A DNA stretch of 64,000 nt from Escherichia coli (GCF_003334335.1 NZ_QOWQ01000005.1), one strand, 5' to 3'; positions 1 to 64,000 are shown, counted from the stretch's first letter. The notes: generated from the sequence alone by a model not told the origin. Translations and numbers: made by a program.

Positions 1-151
1 TGTAGAGAAGCAGCTTCCCAATAAATTTCATGGTCTTCCATCCCGTGAAATGCACATAAGGGAGTTATGCACGATTTACGCGCAATCCTCAAGGCGGGAA
101 TGGTGAAAGAGGTGAGACTGCGGCGGTAATTATCTTACCGCCGCCAGTGAA

Positions 152-1543
152 TTACTGTTTTTCTGGTGGGAAAATCAGATTCAGCACGATGGCAGTAATA
201 CCGCCCGCGGCGATCCCGGAGGAGAGCAGGTTTTTCAGCCATTCAGGGGCAAACTGCAAAATCAGCGGCTGCTGAGACACGCCCAGACCAACCGCCAGCG
301 ACAGCGCGATAATCAGAATCGCCCGACGGTTCAGCGGCTCACGAGAAACGATACGCACACCGGAGGCGGCGATGGTGCCAAACATTACAAGCGTTGCGCC
401 GCCCAGAACCGGTTCTGGAATGTGTTGTACAAAACCGCTCACTGCCGGGAACAGACCCAGCACGATCAACATCAGCGCGACGACAAAACCGACATAGCGG
501 CTGGCAACACCAGTCAACTGGATCACTCCGTTGTTTTGCCCGAAGCAGGAGTTCGGGAAGGTGTTAAACACCGCCGAAACAAACGAGTTCAGGCCGTTTG
601 CCAGCACGCCACCTTTCAGGCGTTTCATGTACAGCGGACCGGACACTGGCTGTTCGGAAACGTCAGAGGTCGCCGTGATATCGCCAATGGTTTCCAGCGA
701 AGTGATCATAAAGACCAGCATCAGCGGCAGCAGCAGACTCCATTCAATGCCAAGACCGTAATAGAGCGGCGTTGGCACCATAATCAGTTCTTGCGTCATC
801 GGTTCGTTGCTTTCTGGCAACATGCCCATAAACCACGCCAGCGCATATCCGGCCGCCATCGCAATCACCAGTGAGGCCACGCGTAAGTAAGGGTTACGTT
901 GACGGTTAAGCAGGATAATTAAGGCTAAGACCACGCCTGCCAGCAGCAGATTTTTCGGTGCGCCGAAGGTGTTATCGCTCATGGCTGCGTAACCGCCGCC
1001 AATGGACGTTAACCCAACCTGAATTAGCGACAGGCCGATAATCATCACCACAACGCCAGAAACCAGCGGCGTAATAATGCGGCGCGCCAGATGCAGAACG
1101 CGGGAGATCACCATCTCGGTGCAACTTGCCAGCATCAACGTGCCGAACAAAGCCGCCATCATGGTAGGAACATCAGCACCACCGGTTTTCAGCGCGGTAC
1201 CGCCCATAATCAGCGGGGCAACAAAGTTGAAGCTGGTGCCCTGAATAGACAACAGCCCGGAGCCAACCGGACCCCAGGCCTTAATTTGAATAATCGATGC
1301 CACACCGGAGGCAAACAGCGACATACTAATAATGTGTTGCGTGTCTTGTGCCGGTAAACCCAGCGCCTGGCAGATTAATAGCGCTGGCGTGATCACCGCA
1401 ACGAACATCGCCAGCAGATGCTGACAGGCGGCAAACAGGGTTTGAGGAAGCGGCGGACGATCTTCAAGACGGTAAATCAGTTCGCTGTTTTGAGTCTGCG
1501 CAACCGGTTGCGCATTTTCTGACTCGAGGGTGGAAACAGACAT
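152..1543 (-). CDS. xanP: Xanthine permease, NCS2 family
   Basis: 466-aa ORF 152..1552; recognisable nucleobase:cation symporter-2 sequence; start trimmed to the internal Met (MSVSTLESE...) matching the ~463-aa protein I recall. Confidence 0.8.
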
Positions 1544-1822
1544 CGAAAACAATCCCGTGGTAGCAAAGCGGGCATTTTAGCTGACCGAAAGAGAAAAGCA
1601 AACGTTTGCCACATCCTCATCTAAATATTTAAATGAGATAAATGCACTTTTTTATATAACTTTTGGTATTTTTCTGCTTAAAATCCATGCCATTTGTTCA
1701 TTAACAGCTGAGAATTTGACCCAGGAAAGCATAACTCGATACCCGTCATAGTTCATGAAGTTGCCACTGCGCGATGAAGTATGACGAGTATGAAAGAGTG
1801 ATGCGGATACAAAGGAGTAACT

Positions 1823-3028
1823 ATGTTTCATCTCGATACTTTAGCAACGCTTGTTGCCGCAACGCTGACGTTGCTGCTCGGGCGTAAGTTGGTCCATTCC
1901 GTCTCCTTTTTGAAGAAATACACCATACCGGAACCTGTTGCGGGTGGTTTGTTGGTGGCGCTGGCGCTACTAGTACTGAAAAAAAGCATGGGCTGGGAAG
2001 TCAACTTTGATATGTCCCTGCGCGATCCGTTAATGCTGGCTTTCTTCGCCACCATTGGCCTGAACGCCAACATTGCCAGTTTGCGTGCCGGTGGGCGTGT
2101 GGTTGGCATCTTCTTGATTGTGGTTGTTGGTCTGTTGGTGATGCAAAATGCCATTGGCATTGGTATGGCTAGCCTGTTAGGGCTTGATCCGCTGATGGGG
2201 CTGTTGGCCGGTTCTATTACGCTTTCCGGCGGTCACGGTACGGGCGCTGCGTGGAGTAAATTGTTCATTGAACGTTATGGCTTCACCAATGCGACGGAAG
2301 TGGCGATGGCCTGTGCAACGTTCGGTCTGGTGCTGGGCGGCTTGATTGGCGGTCCGGTGGCGCGCTATCTGGTGAAACACTCCACCACGCCGAACGGTAT
2401 TCCGGATGACCAGGAAGTCCCGACGGCGTTTGAAAAGCCGGATGTGGGCCGCATGATCACCTCGTTGGTGCTGATTGAAACTATCGCGCTGATTGCTATC
2501 TGCCTGACGGTGGGGAAAATTGTTGCGCAACTTTTGGCTGGCACTGCTTTTGAACTGCCGACCTTCGTCTGTGTACTGTTTGTTGGCGTGATTCTGAGCA
2601 ACGGTCTGTCAATAATGGGCTTTTACCGCGTCTTTGAGCGTGCGGTATCCGTGCTGGGTAACGTAAGCTTGTCGTTGTTCCTGGCGATGGCGTTGATGGG
2701 GCTGAAACTGTGGGAGCTGGCTTCGCTGGCGCTGCCGATGCTGGCGATTCTGGTGGTACAGACCATCTTCATGGCGTTGTATGCCATCTTCGTTACCTGG
2801 CGCATGATGGGCAAAAACTACGATGCGGCAGTGCTGGCTGCGGGTCACTGTGGTTTTGGCCTCGGTGCAACGCCAACGGCAATCGCCAACATGCAGGCGA
2901 TCACTGAACGCTTTGGCCCGTCGCACATGGCGTTTTTGGTGGTGCCGATGGTCGGTGCGTTCTTTATCGATATCGTCAATGCGCTGGTAATTAAGTTGTA
3001 TTTGATGTTGCCGATTTTTGCCGGTTAA
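1823..3028 (+). CDS. gltS: Sodium/glutamate symporter
   Basis: 401-aa polytopic membrane ORF, AAGGAG RBS 7 nt upstream of ATG; sequence recognised as GltS. Confidence 0.88.
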   Translation: MFHLDTLATLVAATLTLLLGRKLVHSVSFLKKYTIPEPVAGGLLVALALLVLKKSMGWEVNFDMSLRDPLMLAFFATIGLNANIASLRAGGRVVGIFLIVVVGLLVMQNAIGIGMASLLGLDPLMGLLAGSITLSGGHGTGAAWSKLFIERYGFTNATEVAMACATFGLVLGGLIGGPVARYLVKHSTTPNGIPDDQEVPTAFEKPDVGRMITSLVLIETIALIAICLTVGKIVAQLLAGTAFELPTFVCVLFVGVILSNGLSIMGFYRVFERAVSVLGNVSLSLFLAMALMGLKLWELASLALPMLAILVVQTIFMALYAIFVTWRMMGKNYDAAVLAAGHCGFGLGATPTAIANMQAITERFGPSHMAFLVVPMVGAFFIDIVNALVIKLYLMLPIFAG

Positions 3029-3193
3029 CCGATGAAGCGGCGGTAGAAGTGCCGCCGCAACAAAGACAAATGCCTGATACGCTTCGCTTATCAAGCCTGC
3101 GTATTGATTCATAATTTATTGAATTTGTAGGGTGAATCGCATCCGGCAGGAAGGTAGGGTAACCTGAAATGGCGGTCTTCTCACTGCCGCCTT

Positions 3194-5275
3194 TTACGCA
3201 TTCGAGTAACGTTCTGTCTCCGGCATCCAGCGTTCTATCAAGGCTTTTGCCTGTTGTGGGTAACGTTCGTGAATATGTCGCGCCAGGCGCTGAACTTCCG
3301 GGATCATCGCCTGATCGCGCAGTAAATCCGCCACTTTAAATTCAGCATTACCCGTCTGACGCGTGCCTAACAATTCGCCAGGGCCGCGAATCTCCAGATC
3401 TTTTTGCGCAATCACAAAACCGTCGTTACTGTCGCGCAGCACTTGCAGGCGAATTTGCGCCGTTTTAGAAAGCGGCGTTTTGTAGAGCAGCACGCAGTGA
3501 GAAGCCACCGCGCCACGACCTACGCGCCCGCGCAGCTGGTGTAACTGCGCCAGACCCAGACGCTCAGGGTTTTCGATAATCATCAGGCTGGCGTTAGGCA
3601 CATCAACACCGACTTCAATAACGGTAGTGGCAACCAGCAGATGTAGCTCACCTTGTTTAAACGACGCCATCACCGCCTGTTTCTCGGCTGGTTTCATCCG
3701 CCCGTGTACCAGGCCAACATTCAATTCTGGTAGCGCCAGTTTCAACTCTTCCCAGGTAGCTTCCGCCGCCTGCGCTTCCAGTAACTCTGACTCTTCAATC
3801 AACGTACAAACCCAGTACGCCTGACGACCTTCAGTTATGCAGGCGTGGCGCACGCGGTCAATGATGTCGGTACGGCGGGTATCAGGAATAGCGACCGTAG
3901 TCACTGGCGTGCGGCCTGGCGGCAGCTCATCTATCACCGAGGTATCGAGATCGGCATACGCCGTCATTGCCAGCGTGCGGGGGATCGGCGTGGCGGTCAT
4001 GATCAACTGATGCGGATGGAAGCCCTGCTGCTGGCCTTTCTCCCACAATGCCAGACGCTGATGCACGCCAAAACGATGCTGTTCGTCGATAATCACCAGC
4101 GCCAGGCCGTTAAACTGCACCTGTTCCTGGAAGATGGCGTGTGTACCGACAATCATCTGCACCTGACCGCTGGCGATGGCTTCCTGCTGAGACAGTCGCG
4201 CTTTGCCTTTCTGCTTACCGGCGAGCCAGCCCACTTTGATACCGAGCGGTGCAAACCAGTTGCGGAAGTTATTGGCGTGCTGCTCGGCGAGTAATTCGGT
4301 TGGTGCCATCAGTGCCACCTGTTTGCCGTGGGCAATCGCACGCAGCGCGGCGAGGGCGGCGACCAGCGTTTTACCGGAACCTACATCGCCCTGTACCAGG
4401 CGCATCATCGGCACATCCAGCGCCATATCATGCTCGATCTCCGCCACTACGCGTGCCTGTGCGCCCGTTGGCTTGAACGGTAAGGCGGCGAGGAGTTTAT
4501 TTTTCAGCGTGTCATTGGCGCTCAGCGGCTGGGCATGAAAACGCTGTGCTCCGGCACGTAAGGCTAACATGCTGAGGTTGTGCGCCAGCAGTTCTTCCAG
4601 AATCAGACGACGTTGCGCCGGATGCTGCCCGGTTTCCAGATCGCTAAGCTGTAGCGTCGGTGGCGGGCGGTGCAAAGTGCGCAACGCTTCCGGTAGCGTC
4701 ATCATTCCTTGTGACAGTTCCGGCGGCAGGAGTTCTTCAATGGCGCAGGTGTCGAGCAGATCCAGCGCCTGGTCGGTTAATTTACGCAGCGTGGCCTGCT
4801 TTACGCCTTCCGTTGTTGGATAAACCGGCGTGAGCGTTTCCTGTAATTCTGGCGTGCTGAGATCGCCCTGCACGCGGTATTCCGGGTGGATCATCTCCGC
4901 ACCATATTTACCGCGCTTTGCTTCGCCATAAGCCAGTACACGGCGGCCCGTCGCCAGGCTATTTTTCATTGCCGCGCTGAAATTGAAAAAGCGCATGGTG
5001 AGGATGCCGGAACCGTCGCTGATCTGGCAGGTCATCATCCGCCGACCGCCGAAGGAGATATTGCAGTTCAGCACTTCGCCTTCCACCGTGGCATAAACGC
5101 CCGGCAGTAGTTCTCCGATGGGGTAGAGATGGGTGCGATCTTCGTAGCGCAGGGGAAGGTGTAAGAGTAAATCCTGCACGGTATGCAGGTTGATTTTCGC
5201 CAGTTTGTTACTAAGCGCTGCGCCAACGCCCGTTAGGGAACTGAGCGGGACAGTATCTAACAGGCGGCCTTTCAT
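3194..5275 (-). CDS. recG: ATP-dependent DNA helicase RecG
   Basis: ORF 3194..5308; Walker A GSGKT and DEQHRFG helicase motifs visible; start trimmed to MKGRLLDTVPL (693 aa). Confidence 0.9.
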   Translation of the reverse strand: MKGRLLDTVPLSSLTGVGAALSNKLAKINLHTVQDLLLHLPLRYEDRTHLYPIGELLPGVYATVEGEVLNCNISFGGRRMMTCQISDGSGILTMRFFNFSAAMKNSLATGRRVLAYGEAKRGKYGAEMIHPEYRVQGDLSTPELQETLTPVYPTTEGVKQATLRKLTDQALDLLDTCAIEELLPPELSQGMMTLPEALRTLHRPPPTLQLSDLETGQHPAQRRLILEELLAHNLSMLALRAGAQRFHAQPLSANDTLKNKLLAALPFKPTGAQARVVAEIEHDMALDVPMMRLVQGDVGSGKTLVAALAALRAIAHGKQVALMAPTELLAEQHANNFRNWFAPLGIKVGWLAGKQKGKARLSQQEAIASGQVQMIVGTHAIFQEQVQFNGLALVIIDEQHRFGVHQRLALWEKGQQQGFHPHQLIMTATPIPRTLAMTAYADLDTSVIDELPPGRTPVTTVAIPDTRRTDIIDRVRHACITEGRQAYWVCTLIEESELLEAQAAEATWEELKLALPELNVGLVHGRMKPAEKQAVMASFKQGELHLLVATTVIEVGVDVPNASLMIIENPERLGLAQLHQLRGRVGRGAVASHCVLLYKTPLSKTAQIRLQVLRDSNDGFVIAQKDLEIRGPGELLGTRQTGNAEFKVADLLRDQAMIPEVQRLARHIHERYPQQAKALIERWMPETERYSNA

Positions 5276-59790: not shown

Positions 59791-60228
59791 TCATTCATCG
59801 ATGCACTTTATAGAATCATCAATGGCCATAATAGTACTATTAACTCTCAATTTTATATTTTTATCATCACTACAAATATTAACTGAATTTATATCAATGA
59901 TTTTTTTATTCTTATCTTTTATTTTATTTACTGTTTCAATGCAATCAGCGGCAAGTTGGAGTGGATTTAGATTTTTCAGATATGGTCTTATGATCTTTCC
60001 CTTACTTAATAAATAGCATGTATAGGATTCGGAAAGTCCAGCATCTATTTTGTACCTCATTATATTAGATAAGGATGTGAGAAATTCCTTGTTATCATTC
60101 GCAGCCATATATGCCAGTCCGAGTTCAGCCTCTGCGGCCTTACAGGCAAAATAGCTTAGTGAACACGCTTTTCGTCCCTCTTTAGTACTGGCTGATATTA
60201 GTGCCCATAATATTGCTTTGTCTGCCAA
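59791..60228 (-). CDS. Hypothetical protein; candidate immunity protein of the degenerate third Rhs module
   Basis: 145-aa AT-rich ORF immediately downstream (minus strand) of a degraded Rhs C-terminal remnant; role inferred from position only. Confidence 0.4.
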   Translation of the reverse strand: MADKAILWALISASTKEGRKACSLSYFACKAAEAELGLAYMAANDNKEFLTSLSNIMRYKIDAGLSESYTCYLLSKGKIIRPYLKNLNPLQLAADCIETVNKIKDKNKKIIDINSVNICSDDKNIKLRVNSTIMAIDDSIKCIDE

Positions 60229-60316: not shown

Positions 60317-60900
60317 TTAGTCCGTAACTGTTAATGTGCTATCTGGCTCTGAAAATATTAACTCATTTAATTTTTGCATGTCATTAGATAAACCAGTTAT
60401 ACAACCCTCGGAACAGAATCGAGGTCCTAAAGACGGACCAAAAGCGTTTAAACAACTATGTATTGAAAATCCATTGCGATTATAAGTTCCTGTATTAACT
60501 GACGGTACTAATCGTATGCCGTCAGGTTTTCTATTGCTTGCTCCCGGGTCATTAACATTCCAACTCCATAGGCCTTGAGGTATTGGCCATCTATTTATAA
60601 ATGTGTACAACGGGGATTATTTTTACATTGCATATTATTACCAGAAGCGACTGGAATACTAAGCACATCATAAAAATTATCATCACATGGTATATCTGAA
60701 ACACACGAAAGCATACCTAAAGTTATGCTGTATAAACAGGTGGCTAATCCCAAGGGGATCGATTCCAGAAATCGGGTTCAACGGATACTGATAAAAATTC
60801 CACCTACCTTCCAGCCCAATCGGAGCCTGAGTGTTATACCGCCCCTGCTGCGGTTAATGTTACCGATAATAGTTATAGTACAGCCCTGATTCATCATCAT
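60317..60900 (-). pseudogene. Degenerate orphan Rhs C-terminal (toxin-tip) remnant
   Basis: About 140 bp (60764-60900) of degraded similarity to the Rhs core 3' repeat, followed by AT-rich sequence with only a 97-aa ORF (60317..60610) and no continuous frame. Confidence 0.45.
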
Positions 60901-60934: not shown

Positions 60935-61396
60935 TTACGGATTCTCCTTATTCTTCCTTCTATCCATTCGCTTTAGCTTTTTGAGCTCTTGAAGTTTGCT
61001 CTTTGCATCAATATTACCGTTATTTACAGCGAATTCCATCCAATAAATAGCTCTATTCAAATTATAATATTCTGATAATGTTGGATTTGTATCTGATAAA
61101 AAGACCCCATAATTAAACTGCGCTGTAACATTCCCCTGAGATGCTGATCTTTCCAAGAATCGCAATTGTTTGTAAATGTTATTTTTAGTAAAGCAGTAAT
61201 ATTGATATAGTCGAAATGATGCCTCTGAATCACCATGTTGTGATTTATACTTCAGTTTCATCAACTTTTCTTCACTTAAATCATAGGTCATTGCTGTAGA
61301 CCCCATCATACTTTCGTTTTGTTTTATTTTCACATCAGCACCATGCAATTGACAAATAAAAGAGAAATAAAAAAATAGTAACAAGCATGCTTTCAT
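60935..61396 (-). CDS. yibG: Sel1-repeat protein; candidate immunity for the orphan Rhs toxin tip
   Basis: 153-aa ORF with signal-like N-terminus and Sel1/TPR-like repeats; immediately follows the orphan Rhs tip. Confidence 0.6.
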   Translation of the reverse strand: MKACLLLFFYFSFICQLHGADVKIKQNESMMGSTAMTYDLSEEKLMKLKYKSQHGDSEASFRLYQYYCFTKNNIYKQLRFLERSASQGNVTAQFNYGVFLSDTNPTLSEYYNLNRAIYWMEFAVNNGNIDAKSKLQELKKLKRMDRRKNKENP

Positions 61397-61407
61397 ACAT
61401 CTACAAC

Positions 61408-62352
61408 CTATCTTATATCACTGGGTTTTTCTGGCGTACCTTGCATATTAGAAATGGGGTGCCCAGATGGCCCATATGTTATCCAATTACCAAGGTCTTT
61501 TGTTGTTATAGCCATTAGATCCTTATTTGAATTAAGGTTCGTTGGTGCTGTTAGCACTGTATCCATTTTTAACTTACCATTAGTTCCTCGCCCCCACCAC
61601 GTCCATAGCGTGTCAGGTCCTATTACATTTGTATGTAACTCTTTAGCTAATTGGCTAGCAAATGAATTTTGTCCTTTACCTGTATTACAAGAAAATAACC
61701 AAACTGTCATCCCATCTTTATAATTCCCATCAAATTTAATTAGATATGCTAGATCTTTAGCTGTCATGATACTGCGCGTTGCGGATTCAATAGATGTGGG
61801 GGAACCATGCCCCCCGATTGTGAAAACGCCTGGGATATTAATCTCATCAGCTACAGAATGGATAAGATCACTTTCGGGGTATAAATTTATATCAACCAAA
61901 CCTTGCGGATCTACATTTATGACCGGATTCAACGGATACTGATAAAAATTCCATCCCCCCTTCAGTCCAATCGGATCCTGAGTGATATACCGCCCCAGCA
62001 GCGGGTCATAATAGCGGTGGCGGTTGTAATACAGGCCGGACTCCTCATCATACTGCTGACCCGGCAGGCGAATGAGCTGCTGCAGATGATGCGGGTTCTC
62101 ATCACTCAGCAGGTTGCCCCATTCATCATATTCTGCGCACCACGCTGTTGCCCCTTCCGTGCTGATGAGCGCCAGCGGCAGGCCGCGATGGTCGCAGTGG
62201 TACAGGTGGATTTTTCGCGCCGGCGTGTACACCGGGTCCATCTGGTTTTGCATCTGCTCCACGGTCAGGCCGCACGATGCCAGCCAGCGGCGGCTTTCCT
62301 CACTCACCCGGTCAGCCAGGATTTCACTTTCCAGCCGGTCGAGCATCTGCAC
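61408..62352 (-). CDS. yibJ: Orphan Rhs C-terminal fragment (core 3' end plus distinct toxin domain)
   Basis: 314-aa ORF; N-terminal part matches the Rhs core end ([26 protein letters not shown]...[16 protein letters not shown]) and is followed by a divergent AT-rich C-terminal domain. Confidence 0.65.
61924..62250. repeat. Rhs core 3'-end repeat, copy in the orphan module
   Basis: About 95 percent identical over about 330 bp to 63675..64000. Confidence 0.75.
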
Positions 62353-62393
62353 CGTGCCGGCGGGAATCCCCCACTGTGCATAGGCAACTCACG

Positions 62394-63236
62394 CTATGAA
62401 CGCTTCAGCTTATCAATAGCGGAAGTTATAATTTCATTGTCATCAAACTTGTACAACATAGTATCTAAAACAGGAAGTAGCGTTTTATCACCTAATTCAC
62501 CCGCAGCTTCAATGATATCATCATAAACAGTATTTTTTTTTAACTCATCGCATAAAACAGATAAAACCCTTTTATCTTTTCTGTAGGAAAGTCCGATTAT
62601 TGCTTCAATACGGACTTCCTCATTTTTATCCTGAAGCATCTCCACAAAACAATCCCTAATATCACTATTATCATATTTATTGATATTTATTGCAAATGCG
62701 GCCCAGTTTCTGACATCTCCATTTGGATCTTTTAACAGATTAATCAATAGTGGAATTGTTGCTTTATCATTGATAACAGAAATAGCAAATGCTGTAGCAC
62801 GTCTGACATTAGTCGATTTATCAAAAGCAGTAATTTGAGATTGTTCTACTATTTTAGGTGAATAAATTGGGTTTTTCTTGCATCGCTGAGCCGTTGACTC
62901 GATTGCCGTAGCTCGAACGCAAGCGCTCTTATCATTCAATGCCATATTGTTCAAAATATTAAAAACATTATCTTCGCATTTTTTGCAAATTTTTATTTGC
63001 CCGAGTATAAATGCTCCGATATCTCTACGGATATAATTTTTATCAGAGCAGAACTCAATTGCCAATCTAACAGCGTCTTGCCCACCTCTTAACTGTAATA
63101 CTCTGGCAGATGAAATCCTTTTCAAGGAATTGTGATCATCAAGTAAGCGAAATAATTCATCATCATTTAGTTTCTTACATTGATTATATAAACCATACTC
63201 TTTACTTGCCTTTCTTTTCTGGTATGTATTTGACAT
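62394..63236 (-). CDS. yibA: HEAT-repeat protein; candidate immunity for the main Rhs C-terminal toxin
   Basis: ORF 62394..63251 trimmed to MSNTYQKRK (280 aa); AT-rich; repeated helical units; immediately downstream of the Rhs tip. Confidence 0.65.
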   Translation of the reverse strand: MSNTYQKRKASKEYGLYNQCKKLNDDELFRLLDDHNSLKRISSARVLQLRGGQDAVRLAIEFCSDKNYIRRDIGAFILGQIKICKKCEDNVFNILNNMALNDKSACVRATAIESTAQRCKKNPIYSPKIVEQSQITAFDKSTNVRRATAFAISVINDKATIPLLINLLKDPNGDVRNWAAFAININKYDNSDIRDCFVEMLQDKNEEVRIEAIIGLSYRKDKRVLSVLCDELKKNTVYDDIIEAAGELGDKTLLPVLDTMLYKFDDNEIITSAIDKLKRS

Positions 63237-63256
63237 TGCAGGAACCTCCACAAGGG

Positions 63257-64000
63257 CTATCTTTTTTTATCGTTTGACTGTCTGGAGTGACGACAATTCC
63301 AGGCTTTCTGTGTGCTTTTTGCATCTTTAGCACTAATATCACCACAATCAATTAGTTCCTGAAGTACGTCACATCTGTCGGGTTTTTTCCCATCACTCCA
63401 GAATCTGTCATTTATTATGTCATTGACACGATCAGTTATCCCTGTGTCTGCAACATTTCCACGAGAAGCTATCATTGTTATATCTAATGCTAGTCCCGGA
63501 TTATTCAATATTAGAGAGTCAAATATTCTTTGTGATGCTGTATCGTTCCACCATTTTGTCAATGCTTTTGCAGCATTATCATCTGCTTGCTGCTGTGCAG
63601 GGCTTTTGGGCCATGGAATTGGCAAGGGGAATGGTCTAGGAAAAACTTCTAACCCCAGAGGATCTGTATTCGTAACTGGATTCAACGGATACTGATAAAA
63701 ATTCCATCCCCCCTTCAGCCCAATCGGATCCTGAGTGATATACCGCCCCTGCAGCGGGTCATAATAGCGGTGGCGGTTGTAATACAGGCCGGACTCCTCA
63801 TCATACTGCTGCCCCGGCAGGCGGATAAGCTGCTGCAGCTGATGCGGGTTCTCTTCATTCAGCAGGTTACCCCATTCATCGTATTCTGCGTACCACGCTG
63901 TTGTCCCTTCCGTGCTGATAAGGGCCAGCGGCAGGCCGCGATGGTCGCAGTGGTACAGGTGGATTTTTCGCGCCGGCGTGTACACCGGGTCCATCTGGTT
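63257..64000 (-). CDS. rhsA: Rhs protein, 3' end only (core end with DPxGL motif plus C-terminal toxin domain); continues past the window edge
   Basis: GC-rich core-end sequence ...[20 protein letters not shown]...DPLGL followed by about 125 aa of AT-rich variable C-terminus; the symbol follows recalled K-12 synteny. Confidence 0.7.
63675..64000. repeat. Rhs core 3'-end repeat, copy in the main gene
   Basis: Near-identical direct repeat of 61924..62250. Confidence 0.75.

Follow-up and report, generated by a model that had tools for sequence, protein, structure and literature searches.

Orphan Rhs modules of Salmonella, the subject of work by Koskiniemi et al. in 2014, are reportedly re-armed by recombination, with recombinants recovered under selection, and Jackson et al. 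in 2009 are said to have put forward a model of C-terminal displacement. Here we describe a module of the same anatomy in Escherichia coli, where a stub homologous to the Rhs core, a toxin tip and a putative immunity gene follow each other downstream of the main rhs gene; unlike in Salmonella, recombination is read here from a comparison of alleles. The open reading frame (ORF) under study occupies positions 61408-62352 on the minus strand of a 64,000-nt stretch of E. coli DNA, hereafter the window, to which all positions refer. It lies at the yibJ position of the E. coli rhsA locus and represents, together with the adjacent gene yibG, a displaced (orphan) Rhs toxin-immunity module. The best overall explanation, which we hold to be probable, is that this cassette combines a displaced clan CD protease toxin with an exported Sel1-like immunity protein.

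The C80 cysteine protease domains (CPDs) of the MARTX toxin RtxA and of TcdA and TcdB are internal, activated by inositol hexakisphosphate (InsP6), self-cleaving and host-directed (see also PMC13323088). The domain in the window differs from them in being a terminal cargo that is accompanied by an immunity gene, and in its length of approximately 140-160 amino acids as compared with chains of 216 and 251 residues. The CPD-like proteins Tce1 (PA0256) and Tce2 (PA2372), which belong to DUF4347, are Hcp3-loaded effectors of the H3 type VI secretion system (T6SS) of Pseudomonas aeruginosa (PMC13323088, 2026; PDB 9qpe).

A class named 'Tox-Caspase', with a caspase-like fold and a conserved histidine and cysteine, was described by Zhang et al. 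2012 (PMC3482391), mostly as a releasing peptidase and sometimes as a terminal toxin. It was found with RHS repeats and T6SS as well as in arrays within giant proteins of Streptomyces, and Imm36 and Imm57 were given as its immunity families. The window domain shares with this class the same histidine and cysteine, the C-terminal position in the RHS/T6SS context and the internal copies in actinobacterial giants; it differs in its partner, a Sel1-like repeat (SLR) protein in place of the listed Imm36 and Imm57. We regard the domain as a new, uncharacterised member of this class, which is purely computational, and not as a new kind of system; the presence of yibJ itself in the Tox-Caspase set was not confirmed (PMC3482391).

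The same tip and the same Sel1-like gene are known in an armed arrangement from enterohaemorrhagic E. coli (EHEC) EDL933, where RhsA (EDL933_4854) was shown by polymerase chain reaction to be z5014 fused to z5017 (PMC7216683, 2020). In that study, the I-TASSER similarity of the tip to C. difficile toxin A (TM 0.73) was read as small-GTPase inhibition, a phosphatase was also suggested, and the Sel1-like z5018 ('RhsAI', 132 amino acids) was proposed as the RhsA immunity protein; a further protein, z0268, was matched to the RtxA CPD. The EHEC study differs from ours in its 132-residue RhsAI, which is devoid of the leader of the 153-residue form, and in giving neither a catalytic dyad nor a clan CD assignment; the latter, made below from models, corrects the earlier guesses of GTPase inhibition and phosphatase activity. 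Small exported SLR proteins also serve as T6SS immunity proteins in the case of Tli5b (PA5086-5088) of PldB, which, as cited in PMC7216683, neutralises a phospholipase D rather than a peptidase and shares only 29-35% identity with RhsAI within the SLR motifs.

Orphan anatomy and armed alleles of the rhsA locus

Residues 2-152 of the ORF product correspond to the last 151 positions of the NCBIfam model RHS_core (E = 2e-90), and TIGR03696 matches as well (E = 4e-25). The stub retains both DPxGL motifs of the Rhs C-terminal self-cleavage site, DPIGL at residues 126-130 and DPQGL at residues 148-152, and thus ends with the PxxxxDPxGL self-cleavage motif. The ORF itself encodes neither a PAAR domain nor a YD shell and is located downstream of a full-length rhsA and yibA. 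Its stub is followed by a tip of differing base composition and then by a small cognate gene, the GC content being 57% for the core part, 39% for the tip and 32% for yibG. In RefSeq, the identical DNA is labelled by the Prokaryotic Genome Annotation Pipeline (PGAP) as a 'DUF8616 domain-containing protein', a pseudogene with a missing N-terminus; the name DUF8616 is not mentioned in the papers searched. The gene order on the identical record is yibF, rhsA (RHS element core protein), yibA (HEAT repeat), the DUF8616 pseudogene, yibG (SEL1-like repeat protein), a broken second Rhs fragment, a frameshifted Imm57 gene, yibH, yibI and mtlA. The K-12 strain BW25113 (locus L017) differs from window positions 61408-62364 by three bases, one of which introduces a nonsense codon at residue 234 (FAS*LAKEL), indicating that the window copy, and not that of K-12, is the intact form.

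Of 5426 complete E. coli genomes, 3885 are matched by a 2-kb query taken around the ORF, some with 100% identity. The DNA of the tip alone is present in 3497 genomes (approximately 64%), 3488 of which show at least 99% identity. Of 40 records sampled at even spacing, four have the tip as part of a full-length 'RHS element core protein'. Two armed alleles were checked, one from O157:H7 strain M1300706002 and one from an O39:H21 strain. In both strains, yibF is followed by a 1409-residue RhsA ending in the tip and then directly by yibG, yibA being absent; the O157 RhsA starts with a PAAR-type N-terminus (MSGKPAARQGD...). Alignment of the armed allele gives 98.1% identity to the K-12-type rhsA (nt 1-3713) and 97.4% to the orphan (nt 3261-4230). 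It corresponds exactly to what a deletion between the repeats would yield or, in the opposite direction, to the ancestor, displaced by the insertion of a new tip and yibA. The existence of natural armed alleles supports re-arming by recombination. A sequence-only reading of this DNA had described an orphan Rhs tip with an in-frame start and about 450 bp of core homology, which could be re-armed onto the main rhs gene. The first point agrees with the RHS_core match, the uninterrupted ORF and the 'missing N-terminus' of PGAP, the second is made precise by a repeat of 453 bp (Table 1), and for the third the two 1409-residue proteins, which equal the deletion product of that repeat, provide natural examples.

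The predicted toxin tip and its Sel1-like partner

The 162-residue tip was searched exhaustively with phmmer against 1.84 billion cluster representatives, yielding 570 proteins at E<=1e-3, of which 81 reach E<=1e-10. Of 150 aligned copies of the domain, taken from cluster representatives at 50% identity, the histidine is retained in 148, the following glycine in 147 and the cysteine in 148; this near-invariance places the GGHG and SC motifs far beyond chance. In a curated alignment of 46 sequences (29% mean column identity), H30, G31, L67 and C70 in tip numbering are invariant. Other conserved blocks are T/G after the cysteine, FAQQLA..LG..V.AP and a C-terminal G.W..F. The domain is the C-terminal-most one in 112 of 129 proteins.

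The family also includes giant proteins of 2600-5400 residues with two to five internal copies of the domain, some at a regular spacing of approximately 440 residues (P0007, P0010, P0013, P0015, P0042, P0043, P0060 and P0075), and these probably correspond to the caspase-repeat arrays of Zhang et al. 2012. Relatives in the AlphaFold database AFDB carry the domain upstream of pierisin-like, TNT and enterotoxin domains. Three further E. coli Rhs tips of the same family (A0A376S9M4, A0A9P2VKJ6 and P0165) show only 32-36% identity, and at least two divergent alleles of the toxin class are therefore present in E. coli; one of these tips may be that of the T6SS-island PAAR-Rhs protein z0268.

The AlphaFold2 model of the tip built on the alignment has a mean pLDDT of 92 and a pTM of 0.89. 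In this model (tip numbering), the histidine follows strand 24-28 and the cysteine follows strand 64-68, both strands being hydrophobic, with a helix behind each. This arrangement is that of the caspase-hemoglobinase alpha/beta fold of clan CD, in which a His-Gly and then a Cys each follow hydrophobic strand residues (here VFTIGGHG and TVWLFSC). The fold matches include Tce1, the DUF4347 protein in the P. aeruginosa Hcp3 complex (9qpe_G, score 8.6), the V. cholerae RtxA cysteine protease domain (3fzy, 8.1) and the C. difficile TcdA CPD (3ho6, 7.7); the top match in Foldseek is again the RtxA CPD (E = 0.02, probability 0.93). Searches of the PDB with family profiles gave sub-significant matches to plant and mammalian legumains, whose alignments place the His-Gly and Cys of the family on the catalytic His and Cys of legumain, in support of the assignment rather than as proof. 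Members of the family show sub-threshold Pfam matches to Peptidase_C13, C80 and C25, and the closest relatives outside E. coli in AFDB50 are labelled Rhs, DUF4347 or Peptidase C80. The model gives the tip a caspase-like (clan CD) fold, the C80/DUF4347 branch being the closest to it.

The position of the tip within this branch was further delimited by hidden Markov models (HMMs). It is the internal copies of the giant proteins that match Pfam DUF4347: among 15 repeat copies from the actinobacterial giants, four do so at E<=1e-3 and ten at E<=0.1, the matches at E<=1e-3 covering the His-to-Cys region; the DUF4347 HMM (PF14252) does not match the window tip, and we conclude that the two families are related but distinct. 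The window tip further differs from the C80 CPDs in having no match to the Peptidase C80 HMM (PF11713) even at E<=10, a single one of the 46 relatives being matched at E = 0.037, and in being terminal rather than internal and self-releasing. Only one conserved column of the domain, position 54, is mostly basic, and no obvious conserved InsP6 pocket can thus be recognised. When searched alone, the tip has no match in Pfam, NCBIfam or the PDB sequences. The Stv domain (PF21527), another C-terminal Rhs tip with a His/Cys pair, was considered and rejected, giving no match in a Pfam scan that included newer families. Profile A3 of the family matches the PDB entry 3m1h, the K3 adhesin domain of Kgp, with E = 0.003 over 'YASSTGNDASNFANALLEEV...VVTAP'; the matched segment, which is part of a non-catalytic domain of a clan CD protease, mimics the family block SC.TG..FAQQLA..V.AP with Ser replacing Cys, and this match is probably due to chance.

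From the sequence alone, the motifs GGHGSPTS and WLFSCNTG had been noted about 40 residues apart and taken as a possible Cys-His hydrolase or transferase centre of unassigned fold, for which a profile search, structure prediction and a check of motif conservation in homologs had been proposed. The motifs correspond to residues 180-187 and 218-225, and His182 and Cys222 are separated by 40 residues. With H, G and C invariant in the curated alignment and the conserved pair located where the clan CD dyad lies, each member at the C-terminal end of a hydrophobic strand, the proposal stands, and the caspase-like assignment fills the gap that had been left for the fold.

Downstream of the tip, the 153-residue product of yibG had been named as the likely immunity partner, with a signal-like N-terminus, and the neighborhoods of homologous toxins point the same way. 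A profile built from four partners was used for the search, and the synteny base is about 20 loci. A partner ORF was found within about 100 bases of the toxin end in L001-L008, L010-L013 and L018-L021; in the first 13 loci it lies directly downstream of the toxin in 12. Besides E. coli, these loci include a full T6SS cargo operon, hcp-vgrG-PAAR-x-x-Rhs(tip)-Sel1 (L002), Rhs proteins of 2449 (L003), 1493 (L004/L005) and 1478 residues (L020/L021), Paraburkholderia (L006), Luteimonas (L008), a VgrG-DUF2169-PAAR-like Rhs arrangement (L018/L019) and five Streptococcus loci. Taken together, nine independent Rhs-type settings and the five Streptococcus loci share this arrangement of toxin and partner. 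The partner is absent from L009, a short acidobacterial contig, and from L022 and L023, which are of the actinobacterial type. The conservation of a Sel1-like gene directly after the toxin across phyla, with leaders mostly kept, supports yibG as the cognate immunity gene.

In the Streptococcus loci (L007, L010, L011, L012 and L013), the toxin is reduced to fragments of 58-92 residues next to one or two intact leaderless Sel1-like genes, of a 107-residue and a 126-155-residue type. The persistence of an intact partner where the toxin is fragmented is typical of immunity genes, and these loci look like orphan-immunity islands in oral streptococci. The actinobacterial or T7SS-type (type VII secretion system) loci share a different downstream protein (L022, 7962-8351; L023, 2547-2795 and 2808-3443) that bears the motif SDGxWIWRxDSxHYLxxYxLDIPxEFLxHVRxRxY and may represent another immunity family.

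The model of YibG has a hydrophobic helix at the N-terminus (residues 3-19), connected by a disordered linker to seven helices arranged in pairs, with pLDDT >90 for residues 41-150. Pfam gives hints of TPR_27 (E = 8e-4) and Sel1 (E = 1.2), and the assignment of the repeat type is based on these HMM hints, the PGAP name and the EHEC paper (PMC7216683). The 132-residue form in the EHEC literature is consistent with a start at an internal GTG (Val22) and loss of the leader, whereas RefSeq gives the 153-residue form with an ATG start. The conservation of the leader in homologues favours the 153-residue form.

An N-terminal leader, in which a hydrophobic stretch comes after a basic residue (hydropathy over 12 residues of 1.95-3.35), is present in seven of eight distinct Gram-negative partners, two of which also possess a lipobox (LVGC and LAGC). 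No leader is found in the L018 partner and in both Streptococcus types (hydropathy below 0.8). The tip of E. coli contains a single cysteine, which is compatible with an oxidising periplasm. These sequence features point to the periplasm as the place where the E. coli toxin would encounter its immunity protein and, by extension, probably its target as well; members of the family as a group are not confined to a single compartment. At L018/L019 (9111-9455), the leaderless Sel1-like partner stands with VgrG, DUF2169 and a PAAR-like Rhs protein of 1696 residues, and the site at which the toxin acts may vary from one delivery module to another.

Proposed mode of action and competing explanations

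For an armed RhsA such as that of O157:H7, we envisage that residues 153-314 would act as a small caspase-fold cysteine peptidase whose general base is His182 and whose nucleophile is Cys222. The tip would be encapsulated by the Rhs shell, released through cleavage at DPxGL and fired by the T6SS into a neighboring cell, which would be damaged by protein cleavage, in E. coli most likely in the cell envelope. YibG, once exported to the periplasm, would bind and block the incoming toxin. The tip in the window, which has no shell or PAAR domain, would be silent as a weapon and kept as a reserve for recombination, and its yibG may still guard against neighbors with the armed allele. As a wider and tentative proposal, to which we give distinctly less weight, the Rhs-borne branch may be an antibacterial, envelope-acting clan CD protease that is checked by exported Sel1-like inhibitors, with leaderless inhibitors where the toxin reaches the cytoplasm. 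If true, this would be the first envelope-targeting caspase-fold interbacterial toxin, and SLR proteins would form a new class of protein inhibitors for clan CD peptidases; in the literature searched, no caspase-fold interbacterial toxin with an immunity protein is characterised. With its tip nearly unchanged in approximately 64% of complete E. coli genomes and armed on RhsA in O157:H7, the cassette offers a tractable E. coli model of the toxin class and of an unexpected, mostly exported family of Sel1-like inhibitors, and it has a bearing on T6SS competition among gut E. coli. It raises the questions of the bacterial substrate, of why most of the immunity proteins are exported and of how a three-repeat Sel1 protein would inhibit a clan CD enzyme.

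Several observations weigh against a displaced clan CD protease toxin with an exported inhibitor. At the level of the fold, the tip alone has no Pfam family match, the Foldseek matches to the PDB are weak (the E-value of 0.02 given above being the best), the profile matches to clan CD are all sub-significant (E from 0.08 to 1), and the geometry of His182 and Cys222 is derived from the secondary structure of the model and alignments rather than from coordinates. At the level of function, both Tce1 and Tce2 are non-toxic in E. coli, Tce2 being toxic to yeast via Cys115 (PMC13323088), and for members with an SLR partner, no experiments demonstrating toxicity, proteolysis or neutralisation were found in the literature searched, which also contains no functional study of yibJ or yibG and no experiments on any Rhs-borne clan CD tip. 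Given the leaderless partners of Streptococcus and L018, the target of the toxin cannot be confined to the periplasm. A scan for consensus promoters found sites in numbers no greater than expected by chance; in-vitro binding of the RpoD holoenzyme is listed between yibA and yibJ and between yibJ and yibG (PMC3946193).

Among the alternatives, the one that survives best, itself unlikely, holds that the tip is an anti-eukaryotic effector, active only in the eukaryotic cytosol (for example, on InsP6), and that the Sel1 protein is its chaperone or adaptor. The nearest structural relatives, the host-directed CPDs and Tce1, speak for it, as does Tce2, for which toxicity in yeast and not in E. coli, and no immunity gene, are reported; the in-silico EHEC study likewise took RhsA as host-directed. 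However, the partner gene is found directly downstream of the toxin across Proteobacteria, other Gram-negatives and Streptococcus and outlives the decayed toxin, mostly exported partners fit poorly with a cytoplasmic chaperone of an Rhs protein, and the single mostly basic position, 54, leaves no obvious InsP6 pocket.

A reading of the ORF as a pseudogene in decay, without a role now or later, which would leave yibG as the only gene of importance, appears more doubtful. The PGAP label, the nonsense codon of K-12, the broken second orphan next to it and the chance frequency of promoter-like sites all agree with decay, whereas all 314 codons of the window copy can be read without interruption and no conserved motif is missing from it, the tip is preserved almost without change in the E. 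coli genomes that carry it (at least 99% identity in 3488 of 3497), an armed allele exists and the two copies of the repeat are still 96.7% identical. This explanation also overlaps with that of a displaced toxin cassette, which already treats the tip as currently silent.

A still smaller chance is given to the domain being a releasing (auto-processing) peptidase instead of a toxin. Such a role was assigned to most Tox-Caspase copies (PMC3482391) and would suit the giants with two to five internal copies, as well as the AFDB relatives in which other toxin domains follow. In the window and in the 112 of 129 proteins mentioned above, the domain comes last and has nothing downstream to release, the Rhs protein has its own DPxGL self-cleavage site, which is intact here, and a dedicated, conserved partner gene is present. 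Finally, a Cys-nucleophile alpha/beta-hydrolase of the Tle type (a lipase or esterase), with GGHG as oxyanion hole, SCNTG as nucleophile elbow and a periplasmic Sel1-like immunity protein as in Tli5b of P. aeruginosa PldB, is suggested by the elbow-like strand-loop-helix around the cysteine together with the HG motif and by PA5087 and PA5088, SLR proteins that neutralise a periplasm-acting phospholipase D according to the citation in PMC7216683, but it is ruled out by the fold matches to such a degree that we leave it almost no probability.

Coordinates and neighboring elements

The features of the displaced toxin cassette and of its surroundings are listed in Table 1.

Table 1. Features of the orphan Rhs module and adjacent genes in the 64,000-nt window
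Feature	Position	Strand	Description and basis
Orphan Rhs ORF (yibJ position)	61408..62352	-	314 aa, GTG start, uninterrupted in the window
Rhs core remnant, residues 1-152	61897..62352	-	NF041261 RHS_core positions 1111-1261, TIGR03696, Pfam RHS
Toxin domain, residues 153-314 and stop	61408..61896	-	162 aa, clan CD (caspase-like) fold by model, single Cys
His182 codon (predicted catalytic His, in VFTIGGHG)	61807..61809	-	Conservation; alignment with legumain His in weak profile matches
Cys222 codon (predicted nucleophile, in TVWLFSC)	61687..61689	-	Conservation; alignment with legumain Cys in weak profile matches
453-bp repeat	61925..62376	-	96.7% identical to main rhsA core nt 3261-3713; blastn on identical locus L001, mapped to the window
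yibG, Sel1-like repeat protein, cognate immunity candidate	60935..61396	-	153 aa; synteny; all-helical model
Predicted YibG signal peptide MKACLLLFFYFSFICQLHGA	61337..61396	-	12-residue hydropathy 2.5; leader kept in homologues
yibA (HEAT repeat), in the immunity position for the present main rhsA tip	62394..63251	-	Library scans, RefSeq
Main rhsA 3' end (core and current, different tip)	63257..64000	-	Extends beyond the window

A second, decayed orphan module follows yibG at window positions 60317-60900 and 59791-60228, both on the minus strand. It comprises an Rhs core remnant with internal stops (about 60700-60900), a remnant of a tip (ORF 60317-60610) with weak Pfam matches to Tlde1_dom (E = 0.008) and YkuD (E = 0.038), and an Imm57-like ORF located after this tip and frameshifted according to PGAP. 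From these matches, the second module looks like an L,D-peptidase-type toxin with Imm57 immunity. Since Imm57 here follows the neighboring decayed Tlde1/YkuD-like tip, the link between Imm57 and Tox-Caspase in gammaproteobacteria may be an artefact of gene neighborhood.
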